A stretch of 59,278 nt of DNA, filler included, from Asterionella formosa (GCA_002256025.1; 6 parts of 6 records of this genome joined end to end with filler, not necessarily neighbours in it), one strand, 5' to 3'. Positions 9,910-58,019 are shown, numbered from the whole stretch's first letter. Translations and numbers: made by a program. The notes: generated from the letters alone by a model not told the origin.

Positions 9910-11899
9910 CTGGAGCCTCTAAACCTTTGCCCTGGTATCCTTGAGAATCTGTTAAAAGCCGTGCTGAGCTTGCGGATATCCTTTGCCATCAATTCGACTT
10001 GTGCCTGCAACTGCTTCACATCCCTTTGTGTTTCCTATTGTTGACTGTACAGCCCGAGGAGTTCGTTCCTCTGCTGACTAACTCGGCGAATTTCTGTCCC
10101 TCTTGCACCTGTGAGTCCTACTTGCGCCACAACACCACCACTTCCATCCTCCTGTCTTCCAACTGTGTGCATAAATTCAGCATCAATATCATCAATATAC
10201 AACTCCGCCTCTGAACCAGTGACAACAACCAATCGTTTCTCGACAGGATTTTTGCCTTGTGGTAGACGGCGAACAAATGCGTATGCCGACCGAATTCGGT
10301 GCGTCAGTGCAGGTGGTAGGTACTCTTGTAGGGTTGACTCAAAAGAAGCCCACAAAAGTGGGCGGGCCAACGTCAATGCTACAGCCCGTGGATACTGTAG
10401 GGAAATATTTGGAACAACATACCGGTATTCCAGAAGCCACTCATCCAAGAGTCCGCAATTCTCAACAAGAAGGACATACTTACATGGTCCTCCAATGCAA
10501 AGAGAAGCTGCAACCTTTGCATCAGGATTAGGAAGCTCCACATCAATGTAAGTATCAATTTGTTTCTTTGTTCATTTCCAGCGCCCTCTGAAGTCAATAT
10601 CGTCTCGCAAGCAGCCGCATCGTCGTGAATATGTCGATTGATACTTTCGTAGACTGTGTGTTCCAATCGGACCACTATTTAATCTCTGGAACACACCATT
10701 GTTCCATTCCTCCTTCAGGATCTCATATGCCCTCTTTTTCGCAGCTATTGGATTGTTGGTTTCAAGAGGGAAGACCCAGGGATTTTCAGGGGATGCGCCT
10801 CTGTCCATTGATTCTGTCTCAAGATGGATCGACATGGAAAGAAGAACACAATAGAGCGGCGATATGGCTCCAAGGAGAATTTGTTTGGGTGCCTCTCTCT
10901 CCTCTTCCACATTCTTAGACCAGCACAGCTGGCAGATCAGAGCAAAGGGGAAGCGCACACAGGGCAGTAAATTTTCTTTTTTTAGTTGACAACAATCATC
11001 AGTGCGGCCAACCATTTGAAACTGGAATGTGCAAAGTGCAGGCATCTGGTAGCGCCGGACGCCATCAGAGCATGATCGAAGGCAAGTAATAGTGTTGGTG
11101 AACTCATCCGACTCCAGAGGCCGTACTGCTGCTGATTTTTTCCCTTGTTTTCTCACCTCTTTCTTTTTCACTGCCTTGATCAGTTCATTGACAGGAATTG
11201 ACCTGGTTGGGTTGCCACACCTGATGAGACTATTCCAACTGGCAAGTTTGTTTGGCATAAAGTATGACAGTGCTTTTTTATAGTACTGCAGGGAAGTTGA
11301 TCGGCCTAATGTTGGATTGTCATCGCCATTTGGGTCTGGACGACCATACACTTTGAACGCCATCCATTTGTAGATGTCCTCGGGCTGCAATTCACCTAGC
11401 TGCTCTTGACTAAATTCAAAGTTGAAATCATAGTCCATTCCATCTCTATAGGACATCATAGCAGCTAGTATCCTCTTATATTGAGCCCATTGTTGAGGCT
11501 CGTTCATTCCTCTTGTCCTTGTCATGATGATTTTATTATTATATTATTGTACGCCCTTATCTGCTACAGGAGGTATTCTTTATTCACAAGGCATGATGGT
11601 TGATAACAATACAATGGGTAGAATTATCGGCTTGGAAAATATCACTGTTAACCCTAACCTAGTTACCGGTATTATGATTGGTAGAATATACTACCAAAAC
11701 GAGATAACAAATTCTACCAAAAATTCTACATGGTGGAATTTTGAGCTGTTACATACCTCATACTGACCACGTAAATATTTGCCAATACCTTGGAGGTATT
11801 TTCTGTCCTCAGTAGAAGACTACCAAGGCCTACGAGAAAATACTACCTTGGTAGAATTTCGGGACTACTATAGGTATACCGGGAACGTACTGTCCCATA
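9910..11899 (-). mobile_element. Crypton (CryptonS-like) DNA transposon; tyrosine recombinase CDS from 11525 to the contig edge with two in-frame stops
   Basis: YR catalytic motifs VGRTDD, GTHSLRK and FRGRWK*TKKQIDTYID (nucleophile Tyr). The frame continues through TGA (10572-10574) and TAG (10035-10037). Putative 5' terminus TATGG (CCATA at 11895-11899). Confidence 0.85.
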
Positions 11900-11929
11900 C
11901 ATCACTTTTTTGAGCAAGATGCAATAATT

Positions 11930-13127
11930 TTCGGTGTCGGCTTTTGTTTCATAGCCAAGCTCTTCTATTCCTTCTGGCCAGCCAATATAGATTCTAGGAA
12001 TGCCGCTTCCACATCAACAATTTCGCAAATCCATTGTTTGTTAACATCCTTGCTGTGATTAAAGAGTGTGATTGCAAAAACTGTTCTTGTTGTTGTATCG
12101 GTTGCAACTGGGGCAAATGACTCTGTGAAGTCGACGCCAGGGATTTGTACATATCCCTTCACAACAATTCGTCCTTTATAGCGGATGGATAAGTCTTGTT
12201 CAGACTTCTTCTTAAACACCAATCGACTGCCTAGCATCTTGCGTTCATTGAGCATTTTCCTTGGAAATTTCTCCCACACTTTGCGTTTGTAGAAATTGTT
12301 AATTTCCATTTTCATTGCCTCGATCCACTTATCACGTTCAGGATCAGTCATTGCTTGTTTGTACCCTTTTGGTTCTCCAGCCAGGATCAGATGCTAATGA
12401 TGTTGAATATATTAAATGTATTTCAACGACTCTGTCAATTTCATTGAACATTGTTGCAAGAACCTCTTCGTGTTGTTTTGGTGGTGGTGACGCCATCATT
12501 AGTGCTCTTCTAGCATTTTTTATGGGGATCTGTGTCCATCCATCCAATTTCCTCATTTCTCATTGCAATTTGCTGTCTTTAGAAGAACTATCTGTATTCT
12601 CTCTCCCTGCTTCAGGGTCGGCAAAATGCACATGAGGTTTAATGGGGGGTATTGTTATAGCCGGGGTACTAGCTCCATCACCAAATACTGCTGGTAGGGG
12701 TACCACAATTGCTGGGGGTATTTTGACATTTTCTGTGATGTCATATACAGTCATATCTGTTGTGATATTGGACTTCCCATGCCACTCTCCCCACTTGATG
12801 TTCCTAGTATTGATCACTTCTTCCCATAAGAGTCCTTGTGACTCACCGGAAAATTTAGCCTTCAACATTGCAGCGACGCTTCTGTCTCCAATAGTCACAA
12901 TTTGCTTTCCACCAGACCGTTTTGCTGTGGGGTGCGTGGAGCAGTAAATTCGATAGTGATATTAAGCTTGTCACACATTGCAGAAAGTCCCTTGATATTT
13001 TCCCCAGCATTGTCACATCGCAGGTACCGAATGACGTAGTTAGCATTGCGTAATTTAAGCAATAGTGGTTCCACTGTAGCCGCCATCTGTGACTTTTTCT
13101 TGACAAAGAAAATCCAGGATTTTCCAC
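11930..13127 (-). mobile_element. Ty1/Copia (CoDi-like) pol fragments: integrase core and RT, internally deleted
   Basis: Integrase motifs SGKSWIFFVKKKS, YLRCDNAGEN, TAPRTPQQNGLVE; RT motifs WIEAMKMEI, YKGRIVVKGYVQIPGVDFTESFAPV, DVEAAFL. Confidence 0.9.
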
Positions 13128-13639: not shown

Positions 13640-15348
13640 GCTATAGAATATTGTGCTAATTGCATGAATGATATAGCTATTGATAGTAACTTATTGTATA
13701 CTATCTTCCAGTGACTTGCATAGTGATAGTAACTTATTGTACAATATCTTCCAGTAAATTGAATCATTCCACATCATACATCATTGGATGCATATCGATA
13801 CTAGGATACTACAGAAGAGTCAATAGCAAGGATTAGGTGGCTGTGCGGCATTGATATAGAACTGTATACCGACACACCTAATCATGAACATGGTACTTTT
13901 TGCATGAATGATAAATTGAAAGCATCTTACTCTATATTATGTGCCAGTGAATTGAGACGTTCAACATAATGCGTTGCTTGAATATTGATGGAGTTATAGG
14001 GGAATCAGTATAGGGAAACCATCGTAACAACAACCAAATGGTGTGGTTTTGTTATGAAATGATATCATGCATACTGAAATCATCTGGAAGTCGATCCTTT
14101 CTTGTTGTATGATTGACATATTGATAGTCCCTTATTCCATACTATGAGCCAACAATAAATTGAGACGTTCAACATGGTGTGTTGATTGAATATTGATGAA
14201 GTTATTGGGGAATCAGTATTGGGAAACCATCATTACCAAATTGTGTGGTTTTGCTATCAAATGATATAGTGACATCATCTGGAGAATGTTCCATGTTGTA
14301 TGAATGATATATTGATAGTACCTTATTCCATACTATGAGCCAATAAATTAAGACGTTCAACATGGTGTGTTGATTGATTAATTATGAATTTATTGGGCAA
14401 TCAGCCAGTATTGGGAAACCATCATTTCTACCAAATTGTGTGGTTTTGTTATGAAATGACAGAGTAACCTCATCTGGAGGATGTTTCTTGTTATATGAAT
14501 GATATATTGATAGTAACTTATTCTAGACTATACACCAGTGTATAGAGACGCTCAACATGATGAGTTGGTTGATTATTCATGAAGTTATAGGGTAATGAGT
14601 ATTGGGAAACAATCATTGCCAAATGCTGCCGTGGTCTTGTAAAAGATATAGTGACTCATCTGGACGACGGTTCATCTTGAATGATTGATATATTGATATC
14701 ACCTTACTCTATACTTTACGCCAGTGAATTGAGACTTGCAACATGATGCGTTGGTTGAATATTGATGGAGTTATGAGGGAATCAGTAATGGAAAACCAAC
14801 ATTCCCAAATGGTGTGGTTTTCGTATGAAATGGTATGATGCCCTCATGTACTTGTTGCAGGAATGATGTATTCATATTAGCTACCTTATTCTATATTGTA
14901 TACCAGTGAATTTTTTGTTCAGCATTTTGCATTGGTTGAATATTGATGGAGTTAGGAGGGGGGAATCAGTAGATGGAGTTAGGAGGGGGGAATCAGTAAT
15001 TGAAAACCAACATTCCCAAATGGTGTGGTTTGATATGAAGCGGTATGATGCCCTCAGCTGGAGGACTGTACTTGTTGCAGGAATGATGTATTCATATTAG
15101 CTACCTTATTCTATATTGGTGTATACCAGTGAACTATGGTATTCAACATTTTGTATTGGTTGAATATTGATGGAGCTAGAGGGGAGCAAATCAGTAATGA
15201 TTGAACAGTAATGATTGAAAACCAACATTCCCAAATGGTGTGGTTTTGATATGAAGTGGTGTGATGCCCTCATCTAGAGGACTGTACTTGTTGCAGGAAT
15301 GATGTATTCATATTAGCTACCTTATTCTGCTATATTGTATACCAGTGA
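13640..15348. repeat. Degenerate tandem array, ~180-220 bp unit, about 8 copies
   Basis: The block AATATTGATGGAG...GGAAACC...CCAAATGGTGTGGTTTT...TACCTTATTC recurs near 13981, 14189, 14378, 14571, 14758, 14939 and 15163. Confidence 0.9.
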
Positions 15349-17299
15349 AGGAAGCAAGATGTTTTTCAAAACTGTTCAAGTTGGCTGACCAAGGATCCTG
15401 CCCACATGTTGCAAATGCAGCTGCAATCCATCTCCTGGGCTTATTTCCTAGGTTTATTTCATCAAAGGCAGTCTCAATCATTCCAACCAGATCTTCCCTT
15501 GGTACTGTGAGAGCACAATCTACCAGCTCTCTGGCAGTTTTATCAGCTATGGCTTTTTGCCTGAAATCATAAAACAGCTTCTTGATTGCAGCCTTGAGAG
15601 GTTTATTCAAAGCAATATCACACACCTGATGAATTGATGTCATGCCTTCTAAGATGTAAACAAGGAAGACTTTACCTGGTACAGGTGATGAATGGTTTGT
15701 CTCCAGCCAATCTGTAATAATTTTTCCAAAATGAGTTTTGGATCGATCTACAAAAAGCAAAGACCTTTGACAAGTTGTGAAGAAAGAAGACTAGCTGTGA
15801 CTGCCAGTGTGACTCCCTTTTTGTCATTTTCAACTGGAACCAAGGTCCCTACTTGTTTTGTTCCTTTTGGCACAAGGACCTTGTCCTTACCAGGGTAGAA
15901 AAGAATGAAAGTCTCATCCATGTTGAAAACATTATCCACTTGGAGCTCAATGGCAGTTTTGCAAATAAGTAGTGACTGTCTCCGGGCAATATCAGCCCAT
16001 TTAACAGGAACCTTTTGTGAAATTGTATTTACACGCTCAGAAAACTGAGACCTTGAAATAACTCTTCTAGTCCATGTACAAAGACTGACAGGATCTTTTA
16101 ATAACTTATGAAAATCTTCAGAGTAGTTCTGTCGACCAAACCGATGTCGCAGTGAAACAATTACTTCTTCAAATGAAGCAGCATCGCCACGCTCAAATCT
16201 GGAGGAGATCATGCATGTTGGTGACATGAATCTGCTGGACAAGATATTTTATTGGAGGTCCAAGGGTGGATCCCTTTGTAGCATGTGGAATGCGGCAATT
16301 AGCGGATCCGATATATAATGCATTGTTGTTTTTCTTTGCTTGTGATGCTGCCAATTGGGGAGAAATATTTGCATTTCGGAATACAAGTTGCTTCTGGCCT
16401 CCACTTCTTTTTAGTTGTTACACTATTAACAAATACTTTTTCAAATGTTTTGATTTGATCAAATCTTGTCTCCTGGTTTTACTATGCATGACAAACAAAT
16501 ATTGCTTTCTCAATGGAACAATTTTCATTATACCTTCTGGGGTTGCGGACTTGGCAATTGAAATCCATTTGTAAATGTTCTCCTTTCGTAACCAGCTCCT
16601 CAGAGTTTCTGGTCTTACCATGGACCCAAAAACTTCATCAAACATCTTGAAAAGAGAGGTTCCCTAAATCTTGATGTAGATAAAAAGAGATCATCAGTGA
16701 CCGACAGACCCATGTCATTTCCTTTTTCCCAGTAGGAGATACAGTTGCAGTGCCAAGAACAATAGAAACACTTGAAAAACTGAAACTGAATCTTATCAAT
16801 ATGATCATCAAGATTTTTCTCAATAATTGCACTTTTGACACATCTATTTGCATGATTATTCAATTCAATTTCATGATGCAAGTGCTGGTCCAAACGGGCA
16901 GCATTATGTGCAGCAGCAGCTTCAGTATTGACATTGAGCATGGTACGCACGCCATTGTAAGATAGTTGCCATGCTTTTCTCATGTTCCCCCCTCTTTATT
17001 GCAGATAATGGCTGGGGAAGTTTCTGCTCTGGCTCTGGAGATAAATTTGCTTTGAAAGTTTGTGTCTTATTCGAAATTCCCTACCTTTTTGCAGATTGTG
17101 AAACAGGCTTGGTAAACCAATTGAGTAGTGATGGTTGTTTTGAAATTTTTTTGCCATAAGGTGTCTTTGATTCCAGGATGTTGTTCATTCCTTCAACATT
17201 TGTAATTTGTTGTTTAAGGATGGAGTCATGATTTGCTGTAATAGAATGCTGGTAGACTCCACTCTGACCTTTCAGAAGAATCCCTGTGGTGGGCATCAA
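15317..17299 (-). pseudogene. pogo/Tigger-family DDD transposase, fragmented
   Basis: HTH-like VRPETLRSWLRK; catalytic motifs FNMDET, LFVD..H and GMTSIHQVCDIALNKPLK (DDE_1-type); spread over five ORF fragments. Confidence 0.8.
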
Positions 17300-17839: not shown

Positions 17840-18571
17840 TTGACTCCTGATGATGGGAGTATGCAGCGCCAGCCAGGGATATAGATGGGAAGATGATTGG
17901 ATCAGTAATGGAAATGCAACGCAGAAGAAATGACAAATGTGAAATCCTGACAATGAAAGTGAAGCAACAGTGAGGTAACTGGGATGATGTAGGGAACTAT
18001 GACGGGAATGCAATAGGTAGGATGGTGGTTAAGTGATGATGAGAGAGTCACTGGAAATGATGGGAAAGCAGCAGAAATGAAGCTGGGATGACTGCTGGCT
18101 GGAGCAATGATGAGAATGCAACAGGAATGACGATGAAGGTCAAGTTATGATGAGGGAGTCACCGGAAATGATGGTAAAGCCAAAGCAGGAGAATGAGGCT
18201 GGGATGGGTACTTGAGCAATGATGGGAATGCAACAGAAATGATGAAGGGTAAGCTATGATGAGAGAGTCGCCAGAAATGATGGTAAAGCAGCAGAAATGA
18301 GGCTGGGATGACAATTGGAGCAATGATGGGAATGCAATAGGTAGGATGGCGGTGAAGTGGTGATGATGAGAGAGTCGCCGGAAATAATGGGAAAGCAGCA
18401 AAAATGAAGCTGGGATGGTTATTGGAGCAATTATGGGAATGAAACAGGAAGGATGGTTAGGAAGTGATGATGAGAGAGTCGCCGGAAATGATGGGAAAGC
18501 AGCAAAAATGAAGCTGGGATGATGGGTATTGGAGGAATTATGGGAATGGAACAGGAAGGATGAAGGTCAAG

Positions 18572-18619
<48 letters not shown>

Positions 18620-18780
18620 GTGAGTAGCCGGAAATGCTGGGAAAGCAGCAGGGATGATTATTGAGTGGTTTGAGCAATGATCAGTAAAAAGCAATAAGGC
18701 TTGCTCCTTGAGTGTTGACAGGAGAGGCAGGTGCAGTGATGATGGGAAAGCATTCGGAATGTAACTGGCAGTGGAATGAT
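17840..18780. repeat. Degenerate tandem array, ~107 bp unit, about 7-8 copies
   Basis: GGGAATGCAA-type anchors at 18004, 18112, 18224, 18328, 18435 and 18542, with shared GAGAGTCGCCGGAAATGATGGGAAAGCAGC. Confidence 0.9.
18572..18619. repeat. (TGA)16 microsatellite
   Basis: Read directly; it is an expansion of the GATGATGA segment present in the other array units. Confidence 0.95.
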
Positions 18781-19083
18781 GGATGATGTGTTGAAGATAG
18801 TGAAAAAGGACTGGCAAGATAGAGCAGTATGGTTGAAAGTATGTAGTGCCAGTATTGCTTGTGCAATTTGGAGAAAATGAGTGAGCAAAATCAGCGAGCC
18901 TTGATATTACACTGGTATGTACTCCTATGCTGTATTAGGTATACCGGTATCTACATGTACCCCGATCTAACAACAATACACCGGTACCTGTGTTTACAAT
19001 TTTTTGTACCGGCTACATATACTGGTAAATACCACCAGAGTGCGCTATACCTGAACGTGACAGGTGCAGGGTACCTGGTACCT

Positions 19084-19720: not shown

Positions 19721-19820
19721 NNNNNNNNNNNNNNNNNNNNNNNNNNNNNNNNNNNNNNNNNNNNTTAATTAATTAANNNNNNNNNNNNNNNNNNNNNNNN
19801 NNNNNNNNNNNNNNNNNNNN
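19721..19820. other. Artificial contig linker
   Basis: N44-TTAATTAATTAA-N44. Confidence 0.98.
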
Positions 19821-20880: not shown

Positions 20881-21532
20881 GATGGAGGTTTATATGGATG
20901 GGGGAATGACGGTAGTGGTGTTTGATGACAAGGATATGAAAAGATTGTGACGCTGAATGAATATGTAGGATAAAATCACACATACCGGTAGCGGAAAGAT
21001 AGGATGGATGCGGCATCGTCTCAGTGAACCTGGTACCTGGTAGTAGAAGTATACACTGGTAACTGATGTTGCATCCATCTTGAGTAAGTTGGCGGTATTC
21101 CACTACCGGTATTCAGGGATACATGGTACTGAGTACCAGGTACCCTTGTACCAGGTACCAGCAAGTTGCGGACATGTTGCTTAAATAAATAATTTAATTT
21201 TCAGGATAAAGTAAGCTAAATAAAGCGTTATGTAGGTTCTGGAAAATCAAAGCAACTTGCACAGGTACCAGGTGCCGGTATGGTACCTGAAAAGCTTTTT
21301 TGTGGTCGTCCTACTTGTAATTCAGTAGGAGCTGGAAATAAACACAACAAATATACATTTCAAAAACAGCAATGGGCTATATTTGCTAAATATTGTTATG
21401 ATCATCATCATTCATCCGCTATTGTTCACCTTCGAATTCCATACTCCCAATCAAGCAATCTAAGAAACTAACGAACGAGCAACGAAACGATCGAACAAAC
21501 GAACAACGAAACGATCGATCCATCACAAAAGC

Positions 21533-28509: not shown

Positions 28510-28987
28510 GTTCCACAACCTTACCCCGGGTTAACGGGTGTCGAATGATATATCGGTTAATTCTGAGAGGAGAGCAGAAAGATCAGATCACTGTTCACAG
28601 TACACTCTTGCTTTAATTCTTTATTACCCGTGGTGTCGCATTGAATTTATTCTTTTGTTACATCATTTCTGCAGATTTTAGTCGATTGGAAGCCAGCATC
28701 GTACGTCTGTCCAGCGTCAGCGTTTCGTCCAATGATCGCCTGGGCGGAGCTGGTAAATCGATTCACGAGATTCCAGCTGGAATCTTCATATCATGATCAT
28801 AAAGCGAGTTTGATGCAGACTCACAGCACAGCCATGTTTTTAGTAACCTACTACTACTACCTGGTACCGTGTGTATGAAATATGATGTGGAGTACCAGAA
28901 AATAGTTGTGTACGTATTTACCGGTATATATCATGTTGAGGATGTTCATATCTCGGAATCTGCTACCGGTAGTTTTCTATTGACACC

Positions 28988-29720: not shown

Positions 29721-30557
29721 TTATAGTGCGCGCAATTCGCTGATTATCGGACCTCCCTGTGTTTTAGACTTGTTGTACACTTTCTACATACCGGTATGTA
29801 TTTTACCGTTATTCTGGCTGTCATGCTAAAATCGGCAATTTTGATACCGAAAAATTCGAATTGCCCTATATTGCCCCTAAATAAAAATTACTTAGAGCCA
29901 AATAATTACTTAGAAGTACCCGAATGGCAAAACGATAGCTGGAGTGGGAATTGCCGTGGACTGTCAAGATCTATCTCCCGCCGCGCGTTTGCGTATTATT
30001 ATTCTGCTATAATATACCGGTAGAAATCTTGTCTATTTCCGTTTTGACATTCCTCAGACAAGATCAAGCCTTCGGACACCTGTCGACATCAACAGCCTAG
30101 CACACACACTCTGACATACATCACCAGGGCAACTTTACTTGATGGCTTTTTCTGTTTGGAGGCTGAAAGTACATACGGAATCGGTATAGGCACTACATTG
30201 AACGTCCTGCTTCCACCTTGAACCTGCTTGGGCCGAAAATCTTGACTTATTTGATCATTTGAAGAAAGAACGAAGAAGCAATTATGCATAACCGGCATGA
30301 TCGCAAATGATGATTCTGTATAATAATATTAAGTCGAATACAATATATCTACCAGTTTTATTACACAATGAAAGCAACAGCACAAATACAGGATAAAATT
30401 GGTCACATTTGATCAAACAGAGCCCATCAATGAGTTCATATGATTACCGAAGCTATCTCGCATAATTGATTATCCCTGACTTGGAATTTCAGTGTCTACT
30501 AGTAGGATAGGCCATCAGTTTGTACAGTTTGGTTCCATTACAACCTACAGTTGAAGA

Positions 30558-35700: not shown

Positions 35701-36354
35701 CAGGTACCAGGTACCAGGTACACAGCCTGGTACTGCTAGTAAGCATCACTAAATTCCTGTGGCAGCCAGTATGCAAATCAGTAATACCTGGTAGTAAAGT
35801 GCTGCTCCAGCAGTATGGTGCTGCTGCGGTTGACAGGGTGGAAGTGATACTGTTGTTGGTTATATACCAGCATGCTCCTAGTAGTAGCTCCTAGTGCACA
35901 AATGACCAGTAGACTGACTGTAATGCAAAAGTTTAGGCAGAATACCTGGTACCCTGGCAATACTATCAGGTTTAAGGAAATGAACATATTGGGTTCAAGT
36001 TAGTGACTTGGATTGACTCTTTGTCCCTTTCTTGTGCATTCATATCAGTGGTTTCAGGTGTGACTTCAACAACTGGTGGTCTACTGTGACTGTGGATGAA
36101 ATTACCTTTATATTAACCTGGTGCATATGCCATATTACACATATTTGTAAATATACAAGTTTCTATATTACCATTTGCATTATAGATTACTAGTAGTATG
36201 ATAACAACATAGACTTTTTGTACAGGATCAAACTGGACTACTACACTACCGGTAGCAGAGAAATATTGGAACATACCTCTGGTATCATCACTATTCAATG
36301 GTGAACAGAACAGCAGTATGATATATGGGTACACACTGGTACCAGGTTCAATGC

Positions 36355-36740: not shown

Positions 36741-37574
36741 CAATGCATGCCGGTAATACGATTGAAAATCGTAGCGAGCGCGAGCATAGTAGCCTGCCGT
36801 CGCATTGGCACAGGTCTGACGCATATATATGTGTCGACTGTATTGTGAAAAGCTGAACGACCTTGTTTACACCCGACTCAATGTGTCATTACGGGGCCGT
36901 CAGATTGTCCAACTACCGGCGTACGGCATTTGACCATCCGAAGCAGAAAATGGTTCCAGATTCGATGGACGAGCTATCCACGTGCTTCCCATTATGAAAA
37001 ATACATGTATGTATGTACATGAATATCAAATAAGTTTTGAACACATTGCTTCTTGAAATGCTCATATACTCGGCCCGCTAGGTCGGCCGCCGAAACGCTA
37101 GATCGTTCAGGTGGCGGAAAATCCAAATCATGGCATACAGGTACCGGTATGCGACCTGCTATCTATTTTCGTCACACGTCGTTAAAAATCAACAATAGCG
37201 GAAGCAAAACGCCTGAAAATCAAAAGGAAATCGCAGCGCCTGCATTGCACACTAACCTTTCGAGGCACTGTTGAGCATTTGAGTCGGTACAATAATCATA
37301 GGCTTTTGTGAAGCTGCAACCACTTTAAACAGCAGATCAAATTCCGAGGAGCGCCAGGCATTTTTGAGATCGCTTGTGCCGTGAAAGGAAGGGAAATACT
37401 GGTGGACGTGGTAGAGCCTTCCGACCTCTGTAGGAAGGACCTCAAGCCTCCTTCTCCACCTCGAAAGGTTTAAACAATCCGTGGAGTCGTGAATCGAAAA
37501 GCGCGTTGCGTGCTTCAAGAATAATACACCTTATTTGCGGAGAACAACAATTTGACGCAACCCTGTGCCTCACC

Positions 37575-39164: not shown

Positions 39165-39516
39165 AGGGAGGGTTAAAAGTTGACGTAAAATGCAATGTAT
39201 ACCTATATAATTCTGCACAACCTTGGGCGTTACGGTAAGCGCGACCATGAACATTCAACGAAAATTCATCGCCGCATCAAGTATGCCATGTTCACTACTT
39301 CCAGTACTATGCTCTTTAACTAGCTACATAGACTAATATGTTAATCTTGTATTCATGCTTCAGTCCCTTAGTGGTGGTTCTTTTCCAGAACACAAAGTGT
39401 TGAGATATAAATTCATTGATTTGCTGATTCTTGCGGATTGATGCACAGGTGCAACGGGGCCTACCGGTAAATAAACACTTTTCTGTGCGCCATATCAAAA
39501 GTAGAGCCATATAATT

Positions 39517-39616
39517 NNNNNNNNNNNNNNNNNNNNNNNNNNNNNNNNNNNNNNNNNNNNTTAATTAATTAANNNNNNNNNNNNNNNNNNNNNNNNNNNN
39601 NNNNNNNNNNNNNNNN
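39517..39616. other. Artificial contig linker
   Basis: N44-TTAATTAATTAA-N44. Confidence 0.98.
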
Positions 39617-41412
39617 GAGTATGTATGTCACTGTTTGGTCTTGGCCATATGGCTCATAAATTCGGTCTATTGCTTTGTTGTTTGCAGGAGTATCACCAGC
39701 ACAAACTAGCATTGCAACTGTCTCCCACAGAATTTTGCACCAGTCAACCCTTGTAAATAGCCTTGCTGGGGGCTTTTGCCCTCCAATCCCAACCTCCCAT
39801 TCCTGTCAAAGAACAACTAGCATCTTTGGTGTCTTAGCTACTCCTATTGTACTAGACTGGATCAACAGCCATTTTACTTTCCAAATCGTTTTATTTTGGG
39901 TTAAAGTACTGAAAGACTATTTAGGTTTAAGCAAATGATGGAATCTAATTTAATCAAGACAACTTTAAGCAATATTTTTCTTCAACTTTGTAGACAAGCA
40001 TGCACAGTCCTTAATTCATCATATGTAGATGACTGCATGTGTCACTACAGAAGGAAAGAGATTTACCAGCATTAGTCTACTGGTACTACTATGTCAACAA
40101 TATGCTGGTAATAACAGTGGATCACTATGTGTAGCATTATTTCATAATGATGTTCTGTACTCCTTTAAGCACTCACATGTATGCTGCATGAAGGGGCTGT
40201 CAAACATTAACTATAGGGTATTACTAGTAGTAGTTTTGACAGCATACTTGACATTTGTCAGCTTTCACATGCCAATTCGTAATCAATCAATTCTCAGTAG
40301 ATAAATAACTTATTTAACATCTGTTGCTCCAATTATTAATGTTATTGACGTAGTCTTAGTCTTACTTGTTGTGTAATTACTGTAAAAGTGTCAAAGCTCC
40401 TCGTAACATGTCATTTTTAAAATGGTGCATCACTGATTTACATGAAAAAATGTGCCATCAGCACCTTCAATTTTCGTTGTCAATATTAATGTAATTAGCA
40501 TAATTGTTTTGATTGTATTGTCGATGATGTCGTTATTGTACATACCAAATAGCAAAGCGTCATTCTGATTTTCATTATGTTATTTGTTATCTTTGTCATG
40601 GTCAAGGCTGAGACAACATTATGCAATACTCGCTCTCCAGCCATTCAGAATGACTACACTGTAGTGTATTAAGTATAGAAAAAGCATAATTTAAGCTAAA
40701 TAATTACATTCTAGTAGTGCCTATGTGGGCTACCTCAGGTACCCTGTACATGAATCCATCAAAAGATGTATGATATATTTCATGTTTCATGGGCAATACA
40801 TTGCTTACTTCACCTTATGTTTACCGGTATGTTGTATCATTAACTACAGTGTTATGTTGGTATGCGGCTGTGATGGCATTTGGGTTGAAATGATGACATC
40901 ACACATGAAGGGAAATTGATACTTTAATCAAAACGGTCAAACATTAAGCAAATCCTAGCTACTATGGTACCAACTGGCAGAATAAGTAAAAAGATACTAG
41001 GTCTCAATATTGTAGGCTAAATCAGATTAAAGTTACAGTCAATTTCAAACAACCAGCAGGTGGTCAGGTGGTTTATTAAATGAAAAATCAAAAGAGATAC
41101 ACATGAATCAATTTGGAATTGGAATCACTATTGCCAGCACAATGACGTATGCAGCACTAAAGTTTGGATACTGCTCGTATAGCAAAATCACCGCAACTTG
41201 AATACTATGATATGCTACCGTAATTGGTATCATTACACCCAAGCTGTTTTTTCCTGTAGGCCTCTGATATGTGTCTACTGGGTCGTTTTAATACTGGCAC
41301 GGTATTGATCTGAAAATACTATTGGAAGCACCATGTTACAACAGTATTTGCCAGTAGAAAAATTAAACCCGGTTTAACTGGGGGTTTAATTTTTTGGTTT
41401 AATTAAACCATA
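39617..41412 (-). mobile_element. Degenerate Crypton copy 2
   Basis: Minus strand 39617-39845 reads TPKMLVVL*QEWEVGIGGQKPPARLFTRV..KILWETVAMLVCAGDT..AIDRIYEPYGQDQTVTYIL (CryptonS-type C-terminal domain). FQFQ remnant near 41110-41125 (cf. FQFQMVGR in copy 1). CCATA (TATGG on minus) at 41408-41412. Confidence 0.65.
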
Positions 41413-41569
41413 CACTGTACGAGTACATAAAATTAGCTATTACACTGTACTGGTACCACCTGGTACCTGGTACCACCTGGTACCAGTACCGGTCGTACAC
41501 ACAAATTAAACTCCATCCTCATTCATGTACCGGTACCATTGGTACCTGTTACCTGGTACCAGGTACTCG

Positions 41570-42763: not shown

Positions 42764-43118
42764 TGTAAGATAGTAAACCAGTACAGTATTAGTTGACATA
42801 CCGGTACGTACCAGGCACCTGAAGACGTTTGTACACGTGTATTGCTCATATCCACGTATCTTCATGTAGGCCTGAGATGATGTGGTAGATGGCGCGCCAT
42901 TCCGTTTTAGTAGGTGTATCTTATACATATATACAGTATCGATGATGAATACAATCAAAAGCGACAGAAATCACAACCCGTACGAAATGTGCTTCTAATT
43001 TACGTACAAGGTACTACCATCAACATATCGATGTTCGCTTGTGATGCTGTGTGATCACGCAGTACATAGGATAAAACATTTTACATTGTGCAACCAAGCT
43101 GAGACACCAAAGTCAACC

Positions 43119-48017: not shown

Positions 48018-48527
48018 TGCCGTTGACGGGGAATCTCGAAACATGGTGGAGAAGCTAAGCCTATTCGTATAAAAAAGGAAATTGTATTGAAATTGAAGTG
48101 TTGGGCACATCTGCTTATTTTCACGAAAGCTGTTAGAAGTAGACTGAATGTGGTAAGGTGAATTCTGTTTGTGCTGTTAATTACCGGTATGCTGATATAT
48201 CTGGATTAATACCTGGGGTAATATTTTAAGTCGCTCGATACAGCAAAGGAACAAGGCAGACAGATGGGGGAGGAATCTTGATGATGCCAGTATGAATTTG
48301 AGAAAATGGTCAGCCTATTTCTTACCGGTATATTGTAAGCATGTATAGCTACAAACTACCGGTAGACTATCTGGTACCGGTACGATGGGGAATATATTCA
48401 TAAACTCCTTGACGTTTTTATTTACTATCTTCATCCATGATTGTCGTCATTGTGCGACATGGATGCATTTCGTTTTGCTCATAACCCATTATTCATAAGC
48501 CTGCCCCTTTGCTGCAGCTATCACTAT

Positions 48528-48645
48528 GGGCATGCTCTGATATGAAAACATATTATATCATGTGTATTATAACACAAATTGTTGTACCCATAGAGGTGCA
48601 AACCAGAATTACCTTATTTGGTCAGCACAAACACAAATTTTTTAC
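48528..48645 (+). mobile_element. Terminal sequence of a Harbinger-family element, homologous to 50722-50842 in inverted orientation
   Basis: GGGCATGCTCTGATA...TATTATATCATGTGTATTATAACACAAATTGTTGTACCCATA matches the reverse complement of 50778-50842 with several mismatches. Confidence 0.7.
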
Positions 48646-49399
48646 AGATGTAAATAACAGTGTATAATATAAGTGGATGTCTTGGCATAAATGACTACAA
48701 ATAATTTCCCATAATATTTCAAGACTTGCTTGCTCATACTGAAAATGGCTTGATCTCACCAAAATAGTTATCGGTATGCATATATGCATGCACATCAATC
48801 ATCCTAAAGGTATATTAGATAGTCATCAATTGTCTGCTTCCATTTATGTTGTGATCATGTCTTCTTGCTCACAATCTACCTGCAGTACAATCTGAGTGGT
48901 CACACTATCAATTCATGTGCAAGCAATGGCTGTACTGGTTGCTGATAATTAAGTTAAATGAAGAAACTGAGTGCATTTTTTATTCTATACATTTGTTTGA
49001 TAGCTTTAATATCATTGCTACATGATCATTGTCAACAATTGCCTCCTGAAAGTATCTTGCTGTGTCACTTGGATTGCATATTTGTGCCTGACAGGCCCCC
49101 ATGAGCTTCTTGTCCTTGCTCCTTGGCTGTGGTATATGCTTTTTGCAAGTGTGTCATGGCTTCTCCATACTTTCCCTCCTTGTAGTTGGATTCCCCAATG
49201 GCGCCATGTAGGTACATTCATGGTGTCCACTAGCTACCCAGTAGTCATGTCCGAAAAAGTTCCTGGTGTCATGTCCTGCATAATGGCTGTCCTGAACCGT
49301 CTTTCTGCCATGACAATACTAGTGTACTTCGGCTTGTCTAAAGTACTTGCTTGGATAACTCCACAAGATCTTGTCATGTGTAATAAATCTTGTTGTGCA

Positions 49400-49499
49400 N
49401 NNNNNNNNNNNNNNNNNNNNNNNNNNNNNNNNNNNNNNNNNNNTTAATTAATTAANNNNNNNNNNNNNNNNNNNNNNNNNNNNNNNNNNNNNNNNNNNN
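49400..49499. other. Artificial contig linker
   Basis: N44-TTAATTAATTAA-N44. Confidence 0.98.
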
Positions 49500-50842
49500 A
49501 TGACTCCACCATGGCAATTTGGTCATCGATCTATGATCAGATTGAAACAGTTTACAGGGATACAGGCAAAAAAGTAGTTGTGGATTCAGCATTTGCATCT
49601 AAAAAATCAAATGCAATGTTGAAATCGCATCAAAACAATGTTGATGCAAATGGTAATCCTCGACAAAGATTTGGCATGAATCGCCAAGCCACCTCCATCC
49701 GACAGCTGTCGGAATGGGGAATGCGATGCCTTGAGGGATCATTTCCGAGAATCAAAGACAAATTTCGTTATGAAGAAAAAGGTGAGAGTAAATTAATTCT
49801 CCAAATGATTGTATTGCTCTTCAACTTTCGTGCTAGCAAAGTTGGTCAGAACCAAATTGCTTCAGTGTGTATGCCCTATTTGCATAGGAATGCAAATAGA
49901 TATGCCATGTAATTCAAAGAAATTATTCCTTCATGATTATTTAGAACCACTTCTTTCACATTATATTAGAATGAATTAATTAAATTTTATTCATCATCAC
50001 TACTACTGCTACCACTGTTGTTTTTTGGTGTTTGACATTGAGTTGAGGCAGACAAAGTTTGTTGTGCATTGGCACCTGCTGTCGAGGTTAGATTTTGGCT
50101 TTGCATTGTTTGCTGCATTGAAATCATGTTTGAAGCAATAATTGAATTCATCATTGCCTGAGTGGTGCTCGCCTGGCAGTTGCCGATCTTGAAACTGAAC
50201 TAGTAGGAGCACGTGAAAAATCGTTGTTGTTCCTTGATGGGGACTGAGTAAACCCAGAAACACCAATCTGAGAAACACCTGGGACACCCATCCTACTGTC
50301 CTCATTGTCACTGGCAAACTCATCAGCACCAGTGTCATCTTCATTCTTGTCGTTGTCGTCGTCCTCGTCCTTGTCCTCGTCCTCGTCCTCTTCTTCTGGT
50401 TGAGTCTGTTGTTGTTCTTGTTGCTGGTGACGGCGACGTTCAAGCAGCCTTGGAGAGGAAGGGAAGCCCTCGCTCCCTGGCTGCTCTCCTTTGACCAGAA
50501 GAAGATGAAGACATGGCCGAAATCTAAAAGCGATGACGATCGATTTATTGAGGAGGTTGATTGATATGTAACGATATGCATATGTATATGCATACCTATT
50601 TTGGCAAGAGCAAGCCATTTTGAGTATGAGCAAGCAAGTCTTGAAATATTCCGGGAAATTCTATAAAGTCATTCATGTCTAAACATCTTTTTATATAATG
50701 CACTGTTATATATAAATGTAAAAAATTTGTGTTTGTGTTGACCAAATTTGGTCAACACAAACACAAATTTTGGGGTTATGGGTACAACGATTTGTGTTAT
50801 AATACGCATGATATAATAATTTTTTATTATCAGAGCGCGCCC
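49500..50842 (+). mobile_element. PIF/Harbinger element right part: transposase C-terminus (to 49912), a convergent acidic ORF remnant (50151-50633, minus) and TIR ending GCGCGCCC
   Basis: VVVDSAF and ATSIRQLSEWGMRCLEGSFPRIK are DDE_Tnp_4-like motifs; the GGG-starting terminus recurs at 48528. Confidence 0.75.
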
Positions 50843-50968
50843 AATGTATCAGTTAAAGTAATGTGGGTTGGCTCATAATCCTTGCCACATGATATAATAA
50901 TTTTTTATTATCAGAGCGCGCCCAATGTATCAGTTAAAGTAATGTGGTTTGGCTCATAATCCTTGCCA
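50807..50968. repeat. 81-bp tandem duplication (1 mismatch) spanning the Harbinger end and its flank
   Basis: 50807-50887 = 50888-50968, except GGGTTGG vs GGTTTGG. Confidence 0.95.
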
Positions 50969-53664
50969 GTCCTTGCTCTGATTCTGGCAACCACGATAAA
51001 GCAGCCATGTCGAGAGGCATGAGTGTTTGTGATAAAATCTTTGTTTGTCGTTCAAGTCATCATATGTCTTCGATGAATCATCATCTACATTGCACAGAAT
51101 GTTCGTCTGCAATCCGTTAAGAGCTTGAAAAGAAATCCAATGAAAACGAAATGGCTCATCACACAAGACGAATATTTCCGGTCTGTCACCAGAGCATCAA
51201 TCAGTGCTACAACCTTAATCATAGCTAAACAACATCCATTATCATAGAACAGCACAATCTACTTCTATGTAACATCGTCTCTCTAAGAAGAACGTAATAC
51301 ATCTAGAATTGAAAACGCAGCATAGCAGGCGATATGCACAAAGAAGCATGAGACTGTGCCGTCTATTTATAGTAACAGAGTGATTCTGGTTTCGTAATTT
51401 TTCTATCTCATTAGATTTTCTTTGTCATCGTACTAGTTCCTGACCTTTGAAGACAGGAGCGTATTCTTTGATGTATCTGGAATATTTCAATGGATGGCAG
51501 CAGTTTGTATTTAGACACCAACTTCGACAAAAGCACTAGTACTTTGTAGATGTTCAAAAAAAGCCAGAAATTTTGGCCTATCAACCACCTGCCAGCAGTC
51601 TATACTGCAAAAATGCAAGAAGCACAAGTTGAACGCCCATTTATGGATTCAAGTTTCAGTAGTGCAACAATGCAAAATATTAGAAACCGGAAGTCACATT
51701 TCATCTAGTTTCGGTTTTCATTAGCTATACTAGCTAGTATTGATTGAGAGGAAGCAATTGTAGAATGCCAAACAGGCGAGGGCAAACACAGAGAATCCTA
51801 CTAATTTTTCTCCCCAATGATCCCAGACCCTTCTTGAATGTCACTTGCTACAGTAAATGGACAACAGCCGCCATGATCTGATGATTGTTGCTTACTGTAT
51901 GGTGCCACTGAGGACCAAAACCTCCAGAAATCTCAATGAGTTGCTTGTTTCTTGACTTGAATGCAAAAGGGATCGAAACCAGTGAAAAATTCAAAAGGGA
52001 ACTAAAAATGCTCTGCGAATATCAGGACCATTATGAAAGAGAAATGAAGGTTCTTGGGAGGAGAAGTAAAGGGATAATTGCTTCTGCTGGTCTTGCGGGA
52101 ACAAGAATGGATTTAACCAAACAATATTGACAAATAGGTACCTACCGGAAAAGGAAGCAATGCTTTCGGCATCATCAATCTAGCTGTACACAAGCCTGCG
52201 CCAACTGACAGCAATATAGCTACCTCGACTTCATCAATGAAGAAGTCAATGGGTGGAGCATGTGAGGAAATTCGGGGTTGAGGTTTTCTTGACGCCAACG
52301 TGGACCTGCTTGGCTGAACTCCTCGCATATGAAGGCATTGAGTAACCTGGGCCTGTGAAGCCAAAGGATAAAGAAAAATCTATGACAAGGGTGCGTTGTG
52401 AGATAGTGTTTAGGAGGCAGGGGGGAGCAAAAGTTATCATAGCTGAACGCATTCGAAACTCGTGTAGACAATAAATGGTGGCATACCATGGTTGCTCTTG
52501 GCTGACAGTTGCCAAGTCAAGTACAAACACAACGAGGGTGCACAAAAGACAGTCCAATTTGAATCGACTGGCTGATACTTAGTTGTGAGACTCACCATTC
52601 TGCAATGGGGTGGACTTGCTTTGATCATTGCTTCGTTCGAAGCACATTCAATTCGAATGCTGTCCAGTGAAACAGCCAATGAAAACAATTGTGGCGAAAA
52701 AGCGCAGAAGAGATCAAGAGATTTCATAAGAATTAAAATAACAGGGCATAGATGATGCACTGCTCCTTGTGTAGATCATATTTGAAAATTTCCATATTTC
52801 ATACTATACAGGTTCAGCATGGATGACTCCATCCGCCCTTTCATTAGATATGCAGCCATGTTGCGATAATTCTACAGGACCTATAGGATTGGTAGTCTGG
52901 TGGTCATCATTTCCGCATTGTATATACCAGCCAGTAGTAGGAGTCATGTATACATGCATGCTGCGATAATTCTTACAAGACATAAAAATTTGGTAGCTTT
53001 GGGGTTATCACTTCCGTACTGAAGTATACAGGGGGGAGGGGTTGCATGCATGAGCAACTACTCCGGTATAAACTATGATCTTTAATGAATAAATTTTGAT
53101 TCGTTTATCCTATACCTTTGATCATAACATATTGATCATATGATAAATGGTGTCGTTAATGAGAAAATGAAAGATCAAAAAGTATTTTCAGGATAAATTG
53201 ATCTTAAAAATATGATCAAATGATCCTAAACACATGAGCATATTCAGTTTTCCGCTGCACTATTGTGGTATTCCCATGATAGAAGTAATACCCAGCAAGT
53301 ATACAGTGCTACCGGTATGTCAATGTGTCTATATACATAAATGTATGATTTCGAACATTTGAAAAATTGGTGATGACTCCCGTTTATTAAGGTGCTTAAT
53401 TAAATCAGCCACTTACTTGTAGGTACAAGAATTGACACAAAAAAATGAAAAAATTGATCAGGTCGTGGAAAATTATGAACTCATAATGCATTGTATATAT
53501 TTGAATTATGTATTATCAAAATTGATGTTAGTATACACAGGATGTGCCATATAATGAGCGTGCTTAAAACTATGCAAATGTTCAACTATATATACATTTA
53601 AACTGCTTACAAATCTTTATGTACATGTACTCATGGCTGAAACATTTGAAATCATGTTTTTATT

Positions 53665-54010: not shown

Positions 54011-57000
54011 GACAGGATGATCAATTGTTGGGATTACAAATACAGAATGACTTGTCCCCTTTTCAGTGATTCAAAAGCTCCTTTTCGATTTGGTGGCTGG
54101 CCAACCATCAATGTGCACAAAAGAAATCGGTAAGTGTTATCATCATTGAATCAATCCACAACTGTTAGAAAAACTGACACATATGTGTTGCTTCTTTCAG
54201 AATAATGGTGTATTGATCATACAAAAAACTGATTGATATCAACTAATGTTTTGGTGTTCGATCTAAGGATAGTAATCGTGAGATCAAATCAGTTATTCAT
54301 TCAGTCTAACCTTTGGAATGCTAATATCAAATATAATTTTCAGCTTTCAATCCAACCTTCATTACTAGTACTGATCTAACTTATTTCTCTCATTGATCGA
54401 ACCTATTATCATGTTCGATCAATGATGAACAAAAAACGAATTAAATGGATTGCTATTTAATGCTCAAATATTCTACTTCTGGTCACCCATACTTTACACT
54501 GTGCATCCTCTATCAGAATGAGCACACAGTGGTCTTCAATACCTTAATTTTCACATCCGGTAGCTATGTTTGGATCATTGCCTTTTCAAAATGAAATGAG
54601 AGAGTAAACGAAATTGATGATGCTTTATTCGAACGTCTACCAATGCGAATAGCAGCAAGTCACATTCTCCAATGTTCTTGTACAACTTTCCTGTAAGAAA
54701 TGAAAACAGCAATTTTAGCAAAACTGTTGCATCAAGTAGGCACGGCATCTAAACGAAGATATGTGCAACGAAACAAACACATGAACAATCCATCACTCCA
54801 ATTTCCGTATGAGCAGGCAATGTGCACAAAACTTGCCTGTGCTCTCATGGTTAATTGTTGCTTCCATTAAGAATGGTAGTAAGCCACATTCTCCAAGGTT
54901 CCTGTATAATTTTGAGGAGATAATATCAATGTTAGCAAAAGTGTTGCAACGATTAAAGCATCTCCAGCCACACATGTGCCACGAACTGATGACAAAAACA
55001 ATCTCTATAGTAACTTCACGTTACAATCGACATAACGAGCATCAAATTAGAGTATATTAACTTACCTATGCTCTCACTGTTGATTGATGGGTGACAGGGT
55101 AGCGTTGTTAACCCTCACATCTGCATATTTGGAAGGGAAAGATGTTATTAATGTCGAAATCCTAATTATTGGACACAGACACTACAAAGCCTCTGCAGCA
55201 TTTTGAACAAAAATATTAAGTGCGGTTTCTTTCCTCGTAATTAGGTTAATTTTTATCGTTCGTCCTGAAGAAGTGTAGAAACTTTGAGTGGTAACAGCGC
55301 ACACGAACAGCGATACAATTTTATAGTTTGCTTCTGGTCTCACACGGTACCGATCATAAGCCCCTTAGTAGCCACAGTTGAGAAGCAAAACAATCATATA
55401 ACTTACCTCTTCTCACCGGTTGTTTTGATACCGATAGAAGGCTCTCCATCACCATTCCCTCATTAGTTTGTTATGTGGAATAGAATGCATTACCGGCATG
55501 AATTTTTTAACAATATCTCAACATTTCCTCTTCTTCAAAAAGTGTGTATAACATACATCTCTGTATGTCTAGTAACTTTTTCGAAGGAAGATTTAATACC
55601 CTTCTTCCAGTATGTATGATTAGATTAAATATACAAGACTTAACAGGAATTCGAATACCCGGTAGTGTGAAACTGTACCTATTACTACGCTGATACTATG
55701 AAACTTTAGTTTTGCCCTACCAGCATTCCCTTCTTCCCCTTGTCTCAATACCCGGTCGGAACATGACATGGCTGCCTACATGGAAACTGTACCTATTTCT
55801 AAGCTGGTACTATGAAACTGCAGCTTTGCGCTACCGATCTAACGTCTATCACTGAGTATGTCGGTGCTGCATCTCTTCCAATCCAGCACTTGCCCACTGT
55901 CTAATCCTACAGTTGACAGACCATTATCCCTTTTTGCTCCGCTCCTTGTTCTGTTACAGTCACGTTTTTCTTGACAACTTGACATTTGCACGCTATCGAT
56001 AGTGTCATATATCACTTGTTATCTGGAATGGCAAATGTTCTGAGTGCTAAAAGGAATGGAACGATCTTGGTTGTGAAGGGGAAACCGATCGCAAATTTTT
56101 CAATCAGGAAAAACGTTTTTCTATGGCGTAATTCATGTTGTCTGTTAAAGAGACAACAGAAGAGTAAGGCACGACTCTTACTGGTTAGATAATTTGTTCA
56201 GGATGACAAAGGCAAGGAGAAGAGACTAGATGACAGTGTCCTGGATTTTTTTCTCAACAAATTCTATGTGGTCCTAGAGTCTGGCTTGTTTAACAAAGCA
56301 TCATTTGAAACTTCAAGGAAATTTCGGAATCATATAGGGCCAGCAATGATTTTATGGAAAACTCACTTTCCTCGAGATTTTAGACTACATCAGAAAGACG
56401 ACAATATCCACCAAATGCACCCATGAACTACATTCAGACTGGCGACCATGTCCTGTTTCAATATTTCCAACTCCTTACTGGATAAATGGGACAAATCACT
56501 TTTCTCCTCGACCTGTTCTTTATTTACTTTACCAATCACAATTTCGGAACTCTTTGGTGACAAGTCATGGACTGCTTCTTCCGGATTGGCAACCATGTCT
56601 GGAGTTGCCTTTAATTTCCATTTTGCTTTTGCTCTGGAAGGGGGAGATTTTGTTATATCAAGTCTATCAGATTCGATAGACTCAATAAGACGCTCTGAGG
56701 AAGTAGAAATAAGATCTACCATAGGCATAAAAGCAACAAAATCTTTACTTCTTGAAATTGTATTGGGAGAAGATGAACTGGCATCAACTTTTTCGTTTTC
56801 ACTCGCCTGTGTCAATGCATGAACGGAAAATACACAACATCGGTGATCTTTATTTGGAATGGCTGACAGTGATGACTAATTCCATCGGCTTGGCAGGAAA
56901 AAAGCTTTCCGATTTTGGCGATGCTTCTCAAATGTAGCGGTAATGGTGCACAGAAGCTTGTTCCTCTTTTCTTCTGTATCAATACCAGCACCAACAATAT

Positions 57001-58019
57001 TAGTAAAAGTACAGGGATCATTTGAAACGCCCCAATAACGGAGAAGTTTATCAACATCATTGGACTCATTTCGACAACCATTGTTGCTGTACAAGAACAT
57101 ATATGTGGGACAAGCTACACTATGTATATATAAGCTATATATATAAAGCGGTCACTTTGTGGAAAGTATATGTGTGGCAATGGGGTTAGGCTGTCCTATA
57201 TATTGCCTCTGATGTTGCCGATAAAGAGATTCTTAAAACAATGGGATAGTACAATGCTATTAAGCAAAGTTTCAATTATTATTTCGAACCCCCTGCTGTT
57301 CAAGGTTCACGTGATGCTACTATTTCCTGAATGAAATGAAGCTACTTCCTGATTAGTGATGTTGCGGCTCTAATTCTGCAACATACAAACGTTCTCGCCA
57401 ATAGCTACTAGTCAATGAGATTGGAAGACCCATGATTAAGGCCATGAGCAACAAACTGCGCCGCCATCTGGTCCATCTTCACTTTGATCCACATCTCATC
57501 TTGAAGAACAGATTCGAAATACGGATTGATGTTCGCAATGGACAAATTATGATCAAAAGGTATTATCTTCTTGATTTCGGCTGGAATTGCAATTGGGTAT
57601 GGCCTTCAATGCATCGTTCTCCAATTCTGTTGTATAAATTGACCAAAGCTTTTGATTTCGAGTAACAAACATACAATCAAACTTCGCCAGCATAATTCCC
57701 CATCAATATCGAGACCATATCATTTGTTATGAGACTGGGATCATCTTTGTCCCTGCAAGAAGGTAGCTTGTAAGGGATTCAACAAACGCACAAGGCCTGT
57801 AAGAAATTCGATTACTGATATGCGAATGGAGAGATAATGACGAGAATACTACCGGTATAAGAATTGGATCAAAGCATGTACCGGTAGAGCATTCAAATCG
57901 GAATGGCAACAAGGAGCGCACCGTTGTTGTACAGAATTCATTCTGATAGCATCATCAGGTACAAGGTTTACATACACGTAAGGTGATCTGTGTAAAATCA
58001 TAACCTTCACTAAAACAAT

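Follow-up and report, generated by a model that had tools for sequence, protein, structure and literature searches.

Excision footprints of DNA transposons are usually regarded as rare curiosities. Here, we describe a 59,278-nt stretch of DNA (the window) in which the most frequent 8-mer, with about one copy per 2 kb, is the octamer palindrome TACCGGTA, and weigh whether its copies are footprints of this kind; we know of no footprint of comparable abundance. When Tc1/mariner elements excise, the first or last 2-4 element bases are left between TA dinucleotides, as in the TACAGTA/TACTGTA scars of Sleeping Beauty (PMC6943129). In C. elegans, the related palindrome TACATGTA has been recorded as a footprint left by Tc1 (cited in PMC3520976).

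Both palindromes have also been described in oomycetes. In P. infestans, TACCGGTA is M94, a 'high-confidence' stage-associated promoter motif listed with M93, which is TACATGTA (PMC3597505). Both are enriched in front of RXLR effector genes and of several other gene families for secreted proteins; in the main text of this study by Roy et al., the string 'transpos' is absent (PMC3597505). TACCGGTA also matches the motif streme-5 of Plasmopara halstedii, ATACCGGTAT, which has been equated with motif-9 of Seidl et al. (PMC10031896). A footprint origin of TACATGTA was judged unlikely by Seidl et al., given the conservation and abundance of the motif (PMC3520976). Yeast one-hybrid and gel-shift assays have shown binding of TACATGTA by the MYB-related P. 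sojae protein PsMyb37, knockout of which reduces effector expression (PMC11134190). In the literature searched, we found no paper on TACCGGTA in diatoms and none treating TACCGGTA as a footprint; the matches listed for the octamer came mostly from primers and constructs.

The window consists of six segments of ~9.8 kb, joined by linkers of 44 N, TTAATTAATTAA and another 44 N (9810-9909, 19721-19820, 29621-29720, 39517-39616 and 49400-49499). An earlier note on this DNA had listed 23 exact copies of TACCGGTA, spread over five independent contigs and exceeding the expectation from base composition. All 23 are present, distributed 0/3/5/5/7/3 over segments 1-6 and thus occupying five of the six, and they compare with an expectation of 0.3-0.9. 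Markov models of orders 0, 1, 2 and 3 predict 0.81, 0.24, 0.39 and 0.89 sites, respectively (both-strand counts halved to give values per site), and 100 dinucleotide-preserving shuffles contained 0.26 copies on average and two at most, with none attaining 23. Expectations at orders 4, 5 and 6 rise to 5.8, 14.7 and 20.8, near the observed count, because the sub-words of the octamer are almost confined to it: 23 of the 30 occurrences of ACCGGT in the window fall within TACCGGTA. The sequences flanking the 23 copies are unrelated to one another, and repeat finding joins no copy to another, indicating that they are not members of one repeat family. The enrichment, which the note had allowed might disappear under a Markov model or trace to a single repeat family, therefore persists at orders 0-3 and has no such source.

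The motif is also sharp. Alongside the 23 exact sites there are 24 one-mismatch sites (9-12 expected), the commonest class of which is the CpG-decay form TACTGGTA/TACCAGTA (n=5). When the two halves of the palindrome are allowed to separate, the spacer is absent in 23 cases and a single base in 17 (T in 10, A in 6, C in 1), with longer spacers occurring 1-4 times each. Flanking positions show a weak symmetric preference, with T at +3 in 22/46 (p=0.008) and A scarce at +1 (p=0.015). Across the whole window, TA is found on both sides of 26% of CCGG and 16% of CC(A/T)GG. Both words take the footprint form of TA, a few bases and TA, with 23 instances of TA-CCGG-TA and 16 of TA-CC(A/T)GG-TA.

One copy lies inside a gene with many relatives, where sites with and without the octamer can be compared (here and below, features listed without a sign carry no strand):

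9912..11531, minus strand: Crypton-like (GCR1_C-family) multi-copy pseudogene with an in-frame TGA at 10572-10574; the comparator for empty versus filled sites
10420..10427: TACCGGTA within the Crypton-like open reading frame (ORF); inserts 6 bp in frame, read as TAC CGG TAt (Y R Y)

By tblastn, this gene extends between 11531 and the edge of the segment (9912), crossing the in-frame TGA, and it is a dead copy of a multi-copy family. The Crypton-like architecture (GCR1_C, as in CryptonF elements) follows Kojima and Jurka (PMC3212892); Pfam and PDB searches recognised no recombinase domain in the protein, leaving the GCR1_C end alone supported. The ORF surrounding the copy (10038-10571, minus strand) has 33 longer homologues by BLASTP, all at most 59% identical, and nine of these carry a GCR1_C domain. 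A C-terminal fragment of the same gene family is present at 39617-39898 (minus strand).

The DNA at this site reads gaa TAC CGG TAt gtt and the protein WLLE-YR-YVVPNI, in which YR constitutes two extra residues; removing CCGGTA regains a Tyr codon beginning with TA. An exact two-residue gap lies opposite YR in 30 of the 33 homologues; of the remaining three, one shows a longer gap and two, both distant, are ungapped. Three further proteins came from a separate search for proteins of similar length. Two close relatives, P0161 and P0162 (~90% identical over the shared parts), lack YR between identical flanks, LLDEWLLE and YVVPNISLQYP. The third, P0160 (86% identical), carries the insertion in the form YQ, matching the CGG-to-CAG change that decay of the central CpG would produce. 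Because related family members are either empty or filled, copy 10420 arose by insertion, TA becoming TA+CCGG+TA with a gain of six bases. The earlier note had proposed that homologous sites differing by a 6-bp CCGGTA indel, rather than by substitutions, would distinguish a scar, and an indel is what this one site displays. Integration by a Crypton was considered as the source of the six bases and rejected on mechanism, since tyrosine-recombinase exchange is conservative and should add no length (PMC3212892). At an ORF holding TACTAGTA (40029-40301), four relatives keep the same residues, and hence no indel can be read there.

On balance, we lean towards reading the TACCGGTA copies as transposon excision footprints, though with considerable reserve. 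In the proposed mechanism, the element would be a cut-and-paste transposon of Tc1/mariner type that targets TA and ends CC...GG; it would insert and duplicate its target TA. Upon departure, two bases of each end would remain and be sealed in by end-joining, giving TA-CCGG-TA. The other 22 copies would share this origin, and the one-base-longer companion TACC(A/T)GGTA would represent a three-plus-two variant of the scar. Chains such as TA-CCTGG-TA-CCAGG-TA could build up where TAs of existing scars were hit again, and scars would accumulate near genes if the elements prefer gene-proximal DNA or hop locally. The A/T one-base-longer forms, the spacer spectrum with a dominant form and a tail, the flank preference and the TA-bounded chains are all consistent with footprints.

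The companion occurs 16 times in the window, including three groups, listed here with the only candidate we found for a CC...GG-ended element:

21034, 21134 and 21149 (21034..21157): three TACC(A/T)GGTA in the DHX8 upstream region
35705, 35712, 35785 and 35943 (35705..35951): four TACC(A/T)GGTA, partly in GGTACC-W-GGTACC chains
41464, 41550 and 41557 (41464..41565): three TACC(A/T)GGTA in GGTACC-rich chains
21149..21272: MITE-like inverted repeat of 124 bp with ~21-nt arms beginning CC(A/T)GGTACC; TA on the left, TG then CCGGTA on the right

This inverted repeat folds better than 199 of 200 shuffles, but it is present as a single copy and its flanks are imperfect.

We next related the octamer to genes. 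The window is nuclear DNA of a freshwater diatom, given that it carries eukaryotic genes, that its helicase is closest to that of Seminavis robusta and that segment 5 is contained in public runs whose labels read freshwater, lake or algal metagenome. The host genes recognised encode a DHX8/PRP22 helicase (best named match the diatom Seminavis robusta, 90% identical), a MIF4G/MA3 protein, a PPR protein, a RING-finger protein and a stromalin/cohesin subunit, together with a small YbaB-like ORF. Relative to these, the remaining copies of TACCGGTA are placed as follows:

11664..11671: ~130 bp past the 5' end of the Crypton-like ORF
18942..18949: neighbourhood rich in the related words ACCGGTACC, GTACCGG and GGTACCTGGTACC
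20983..20990: DHX8/PRP22 start codon 550 bp downstream of the copy
21104..21111: upstream of DHX8, 429 bp before its start codon
25620..25627: between the convergent 3' ends of DHX8 and MIF4G/MA3
28919..28926: spacer separating the divergent MIF4G gene and YbaB-like ORF
28964..28971: the same divergent spacer, MIF4G gene / YbaB-like ORF
29789..29796: 769 bp upstream of the PPR gene
30015..30022: 543 bp upstream of the PPR gene; in an ~11-nt indel relative to a paralogous repeat of segment 1 (228-321)
36247..36254: distal intergenic
37142..37149: 364 bp upstream of the RING-finger ORF
39462..39469: ~300 bp downstream of ORF 38283-39164
40822..40829: in high-copy repeat DNA
41528..41535: in high-copy repeat DNA; chain TA-CCGG-TA-CCATTGG-TA-CCTGT-TA-CCTGG-TA-CCAGG-TA
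42799..42806: single-copy DNA, 288 bp ahead of the first RNA-covered base (43087) of the stromalin/cohesin gene
48182..48189: 3' of the stromalin stop codon (48017); covered by the RNA contig
48323..48330: cluster downstream of the stromalin gene
48357..48364: cluster downstream of the stromalin gene
48375..48382: cluster downstream of the stromalin gene
53310..53317: distal
57850..57857: paired with copy 57879, 29 bp apart
57879..57886: paired with copy 57850

Of the 23 copies, 14 lie no more than 800 bp from one of the six host genes, 8 on the upstream side (3.7 kb) and 6 on the downstream side (2.9 kb); 8 are in 24.9 kb of distal DNA, one is in the mobile-element ORF and none is in segment 1. 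The octamer is thus 6-7 times denser near genes (14 in ~6.5 kb vs 8 in 24.9 kb; binomial p=1.6e-5), a statistic to be read with the non-independence of clustered copies in mind and with the chance that 'distal' DNA hides unrecognised genes. At 2.2 copies per kb upstream, 2.1 downstream and 0.32 in distal DNA, the enrichment is gene-proximal with no upstream specificity. Homotypic clusters occur at 28919/28964, 48323-48382 and 57850/57879. The earlier statement that no copy lies in host coding sequence stands for the six recognised genes, with 0 in 15.5 kb, a count that is uninformative because well under one copy is expected there; it does not extend to the Crypton-like ORF, in which copy 10420 lies in frame.

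Segment 5 was compared with contigs from three DNA runs (X1, X2 and X6) and one polyA RNA run (X11). In all three DNA runs, the DNA from 39617 to ~42650 and at 48446-49099 is over-represented hundreds-fold (~700) relative to the neighbouring single-copy gene; summed depth reaches ~550,000-785,000 in this repeat DNA, compared with ~700-900 in the single-copy part of X1. Two of the seven TACCGGTA copies of segment 5 fall in the over-represented DNA and five in single-copy DNA. For the stromalin gene, a spliced polyA RNA contig spans 43087-48691, with three short introns (43230-43373, 45205-45281 and 45774-45840). This contig continues ~670 bases beyond the stop codon at 48017 into a repeat, and it includes the four downstream TACCGGTA copies. 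Other stretches of segment 5 lack RNA cover in X11, an observation from which no conclusion was drawn.

We then turned to other species, using 80 metagenome contigs fetched with a helicase probe. Dropping 22 near-duplicates left 28 diatom-like contigs (250 kb) and 30 more distant ones. Pooled, the diatom-like contigs contain 7 copies of TACCGGTA against 1.76 expected, ranking it 11 of 256 palindromic octamers, and the more distant contigs contain 4 against 2.36 expected. In the 1 kb upstream of DHX8, the exact octamer is found in one of 26 loci, L007, where it is located at -525 (positions in the window: -550 and -429), and the four one-mismatch matches are at chance level. The exact motif is accordingly not conserved across orthologous DHX8 promoters, in species distant enough that turnover could hide it. 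Because the excess in other contigs is modest and a single upstream locus of 26 has the exact motif, the very high density of TACCGGTA is specific to the lineage of the window. DHX8 neighbours (the MIF4G gene and the YbaB-like ORF) were found in 0 of the 80 contigs, limiting the comparison to the DHX8 upstream region.

An unexpected pattern emerged among the individual contigs. In 6 of 13 sources (the window, L007, L010, L012, L051 and L064), the top palindromic octamer is a lineage-specific TA-NNNN-TA word. These include TACTAGTA in L007 (11 vs 0.40 expected), where it is the top palindrome as it is in L051; TATGCATA in L010 (9 vs 0.12); TACCGGTA in L012 (3 vs 0.14); and TACATGTA in the 65% GC contig L064 (3 vs 0.06). 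A constant TA...TA frame with a lineage-specific core fits what is expected from transposon families with different end bases. Occurrences in DHX8 coding DNA were set aside as insertion candidates: TACCGGTA in L049 is a chance codon run (L-P-V) with no indel, the motif in L018 lies in a variable, ambiguous stretch and that in L047 in an unconserved N-terminal stretch. Two TACTAGTA in coding DNA of L007 are in low-complexity sequence and likewise ambiguous.

Several lines of evidence argue against excision footprints. The identical octamer has been catalogued as the promoter motif M94 together with M93 (PMC3597505), as described above. A clean comparison of empty and filled sites is possible at one site, 10420, and at a second, 30015, the ~11-nt indel relative to the paralogous repeat does not align cleanly. 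At the five single-copy TACCGGTA sites of segment 5, no indel is found among those listed for runs X1, X2 and X6; this says little, however, because these runs differ from the window by ~0.3% (~99.7% identity) and indels are listed only partly. A donor is also missing. An ungapped scan of the window for CC...GG elements flanked by TA on both sides returned one match, which spans two host genes, while 13 control end-words gave 0-1. A gapped scan of the window for such elements with inverted termini returned none, the 80 related contigs yielded one low-complexity match only, and no Tc1/mariner-type transposase was found among 61 window ORFs scanned against Pfam. Because the scars look young, 39 of them in 49 kb without any resident element copy is awkward. 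Furthermore, GG/CC half-flanks accompany the companion, which is often chained, in 17/32 cases and TACCGGTA in 3/46; given this difference in chaining, the two forms are related but may not share one origin. Finally, the nine TATGCATA of L010 lie within 320 bp upstream of the helicase (L010:593-917) and have a 12-base consensus in common, a pattern suggestive more of a cluster of binding sites or of local duplication than of nine independent excisions. The scar model of the earlier note thus gains a 6-bp indel at a TA (10420), while the CC...GG-ended, TA-flanked element it called for was not found in the window or the 80 contigs.

Diatoms and oomycetes are both stramenopiles, and the DHX8 of the window is diatom-like, which raises the alternative that TACCGGTA is a cis-regulatory palindrome for a dimeric (e.g. 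MYB-related) factor, a diatom counterpart of M94 that arose and was maintained through ordinary mutation and selection. The identity with M94 (PMC3597505) and the binding of the sister motif by PsMyb37 (PMC11134190) speak for it, as do the 6-7-fold higher density within 800 bp of host genes, the homotypic clusters and, in one other species, an exact copy at position -525 of its DHX8 orthologue. However, this alternative leaves unexplained why a defunct mobile-element gene contains an insertion of exactly 6 bp, and downstream density (6 in 2.9 kb) equals upstream density (8 in 3.7 kb). The exact motif upstream of DHX8 in 1 of 26 loci, with one-mismatch matches no more frequent than chance, and the modest pooled excess in diatom-like contigs also count against it. 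Copies are found in high-copy repeats as well, and different species would require different cores. As an explanation of the copies we consider it unlikely. It concerns function, though, and could coexist with an insertion origin; the protein-binding possibility raised in the earlier note likewise finds literature support, through M94 and the MYB-bound sister, on function and is silent on origin.

The six bases might instead have been added by a mechanism other than transposon excision, such as an ultra-short self-propagating palindrome or a TA-specific nuclease-and-repair reaction. This would reconcile the insertion at 10420 with the lack of a donor element in the window or the 80 contigs, and the lineage-specific TA-NNNN-TA words of related contigs are compatible with it. 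We know of no non-transposon TA-insertion mechanism in eukaryotic nuclei, none is described for the octamer in the literature searched, and TA duplication around a few constant bases is the textbook Tc1/mariner footprint (PMC6943129); this alternative, which with the regulatory one is a main rival to footprints, is likewise unlikely. As a further possibility, the octamer might be a HIP1-like word whose frequency is maintained by CCGG-centred methylation and biased mismatch repair; this would suit an octamer palindrome with a CpG-containing CCGG core, TA lying on both sides of 26% of CCGG and 16% of CC(A/T)GG. HIP1 is frequent inside genes too, however, and methylation fits less well because TACCGGTA is absent from host coding DNA (0 in 15.5 kb); biased repair, moreover, yields substitutions and not a 6-bp insertion. 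We regard this as very improbable. Hitch-hiking of the octamer in one or a few amplified repeat families is barely credible and largely refuted within the window: two of the seven segment 5 copies are in ~700-fold over-represented DNA and one copy is in a multi-copy gene family, but five of the seven are in single-copy DNA, the 23 copies have unrelated flanks and repeat finding connects none of them.

The window holds a number of other features. The hundreds-fold over-represented DNA in segment 5 points to a genome with very abundant repeats. A 326-bp dispersed repeat at 19070-19395 and 58507-58827 has copies that are 96-99% identical, begins at GGTACCTGGTACC and contains a conserved TATGCATA; it was rejected as a donor, as its ends share ~10 bases only and its right side lacks a TA. 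Another dispersed repeat is found at 48537-48800 and, in inverted orientation, at 50580-50830 (segments 5 and 6), the second copy with an 81-bp tandem duplication (50807-50968). Beginning ~160 bp from a motif cluster, this repeat was uninformative on the motif. A Copia-type reverse-transcriptase fragment (11968-12393) adjoins two degenerate tandem arrays, at 13657-15349 and 17962-18800, with periods of ~190-208 bp and ~107 bp. The small ORF at 28988-29350 (plus strand), divergent from the MIF4G gene over a 470-bp spacer with three motif copies, encodes a YbaB/EbfC DNA-binding domain (E=5e-6). Segment 1 (1-9809) carries a series of plus-strand ORFs with no Pfam match except a weak endonuclease/exonuclease/phosphatase match at 4043-4426; with a strong A-over-T skew and zero copies of the octamer or its companion, it may be a retroelement.

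If the copies are indeed excision footprints, then footprints make up the most frequent 8-mer of a diatom genome and are concentrated beside genes. The octamer and its Tc1-footprint-like sister have stood for over a decade in catalogues of oomycete transcription-factor sites, notably those in front of effector genes, and Seidl et al. raised a footprint explanation for the sister and dismissed it without an empty-site test. Comparing empty and filled sites makes it testable whether transposon scars supply regulatory sites in stramenopiles, and TA-NNNN-TA words could serve as a simple marker of past DNA-transposon activity in algal genomes whose elements are hard to find. A broader conjecture, which we put forward tentatively and consider rather unlikely, is that stramenopile TA-NNNN-TA promoter palindromes (TACCGGTA, TACTAGTA, TATGCATA and the Phytophthora motifs M93/M94) begin as gene-adjacent excision scars, some of which are co-opted by MYB-related factors. 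Were this true, transposon departure rather than arrival would seed a genome-wide regulatory vocabulary, with core letters following the element family active in each lineage.

Compared with known systems, the octamer resembles cyanobacterial HIP1 (GCGATCGC) in being a hyper-abundant octamer palindrome; unlike HIP1, which is prokaryotic and of another sequence, it is absent from host coding DNA and has an insertion origin in the one testable case. Like Tc1/mariner footprints, it presents a TA duplicated around a few constant bases, a dominant form with minor length variants and, at one site, insertion at a TA. It departs from them in its CCGG core and in the lack of a donor or transposase in the window or the 80 contigs. 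The oomycete motifs M94 and M93/AM-20 were defined by enrichment in co-expressed promoters and, for the sister, by protein binding, whereas the octamer described here is marked by an insertion origin at the one site compared. M94 is nonetheless the same octamer in a similar setting, abundant in gene-adjacent non-coding stramenopile DNA and clustered there.

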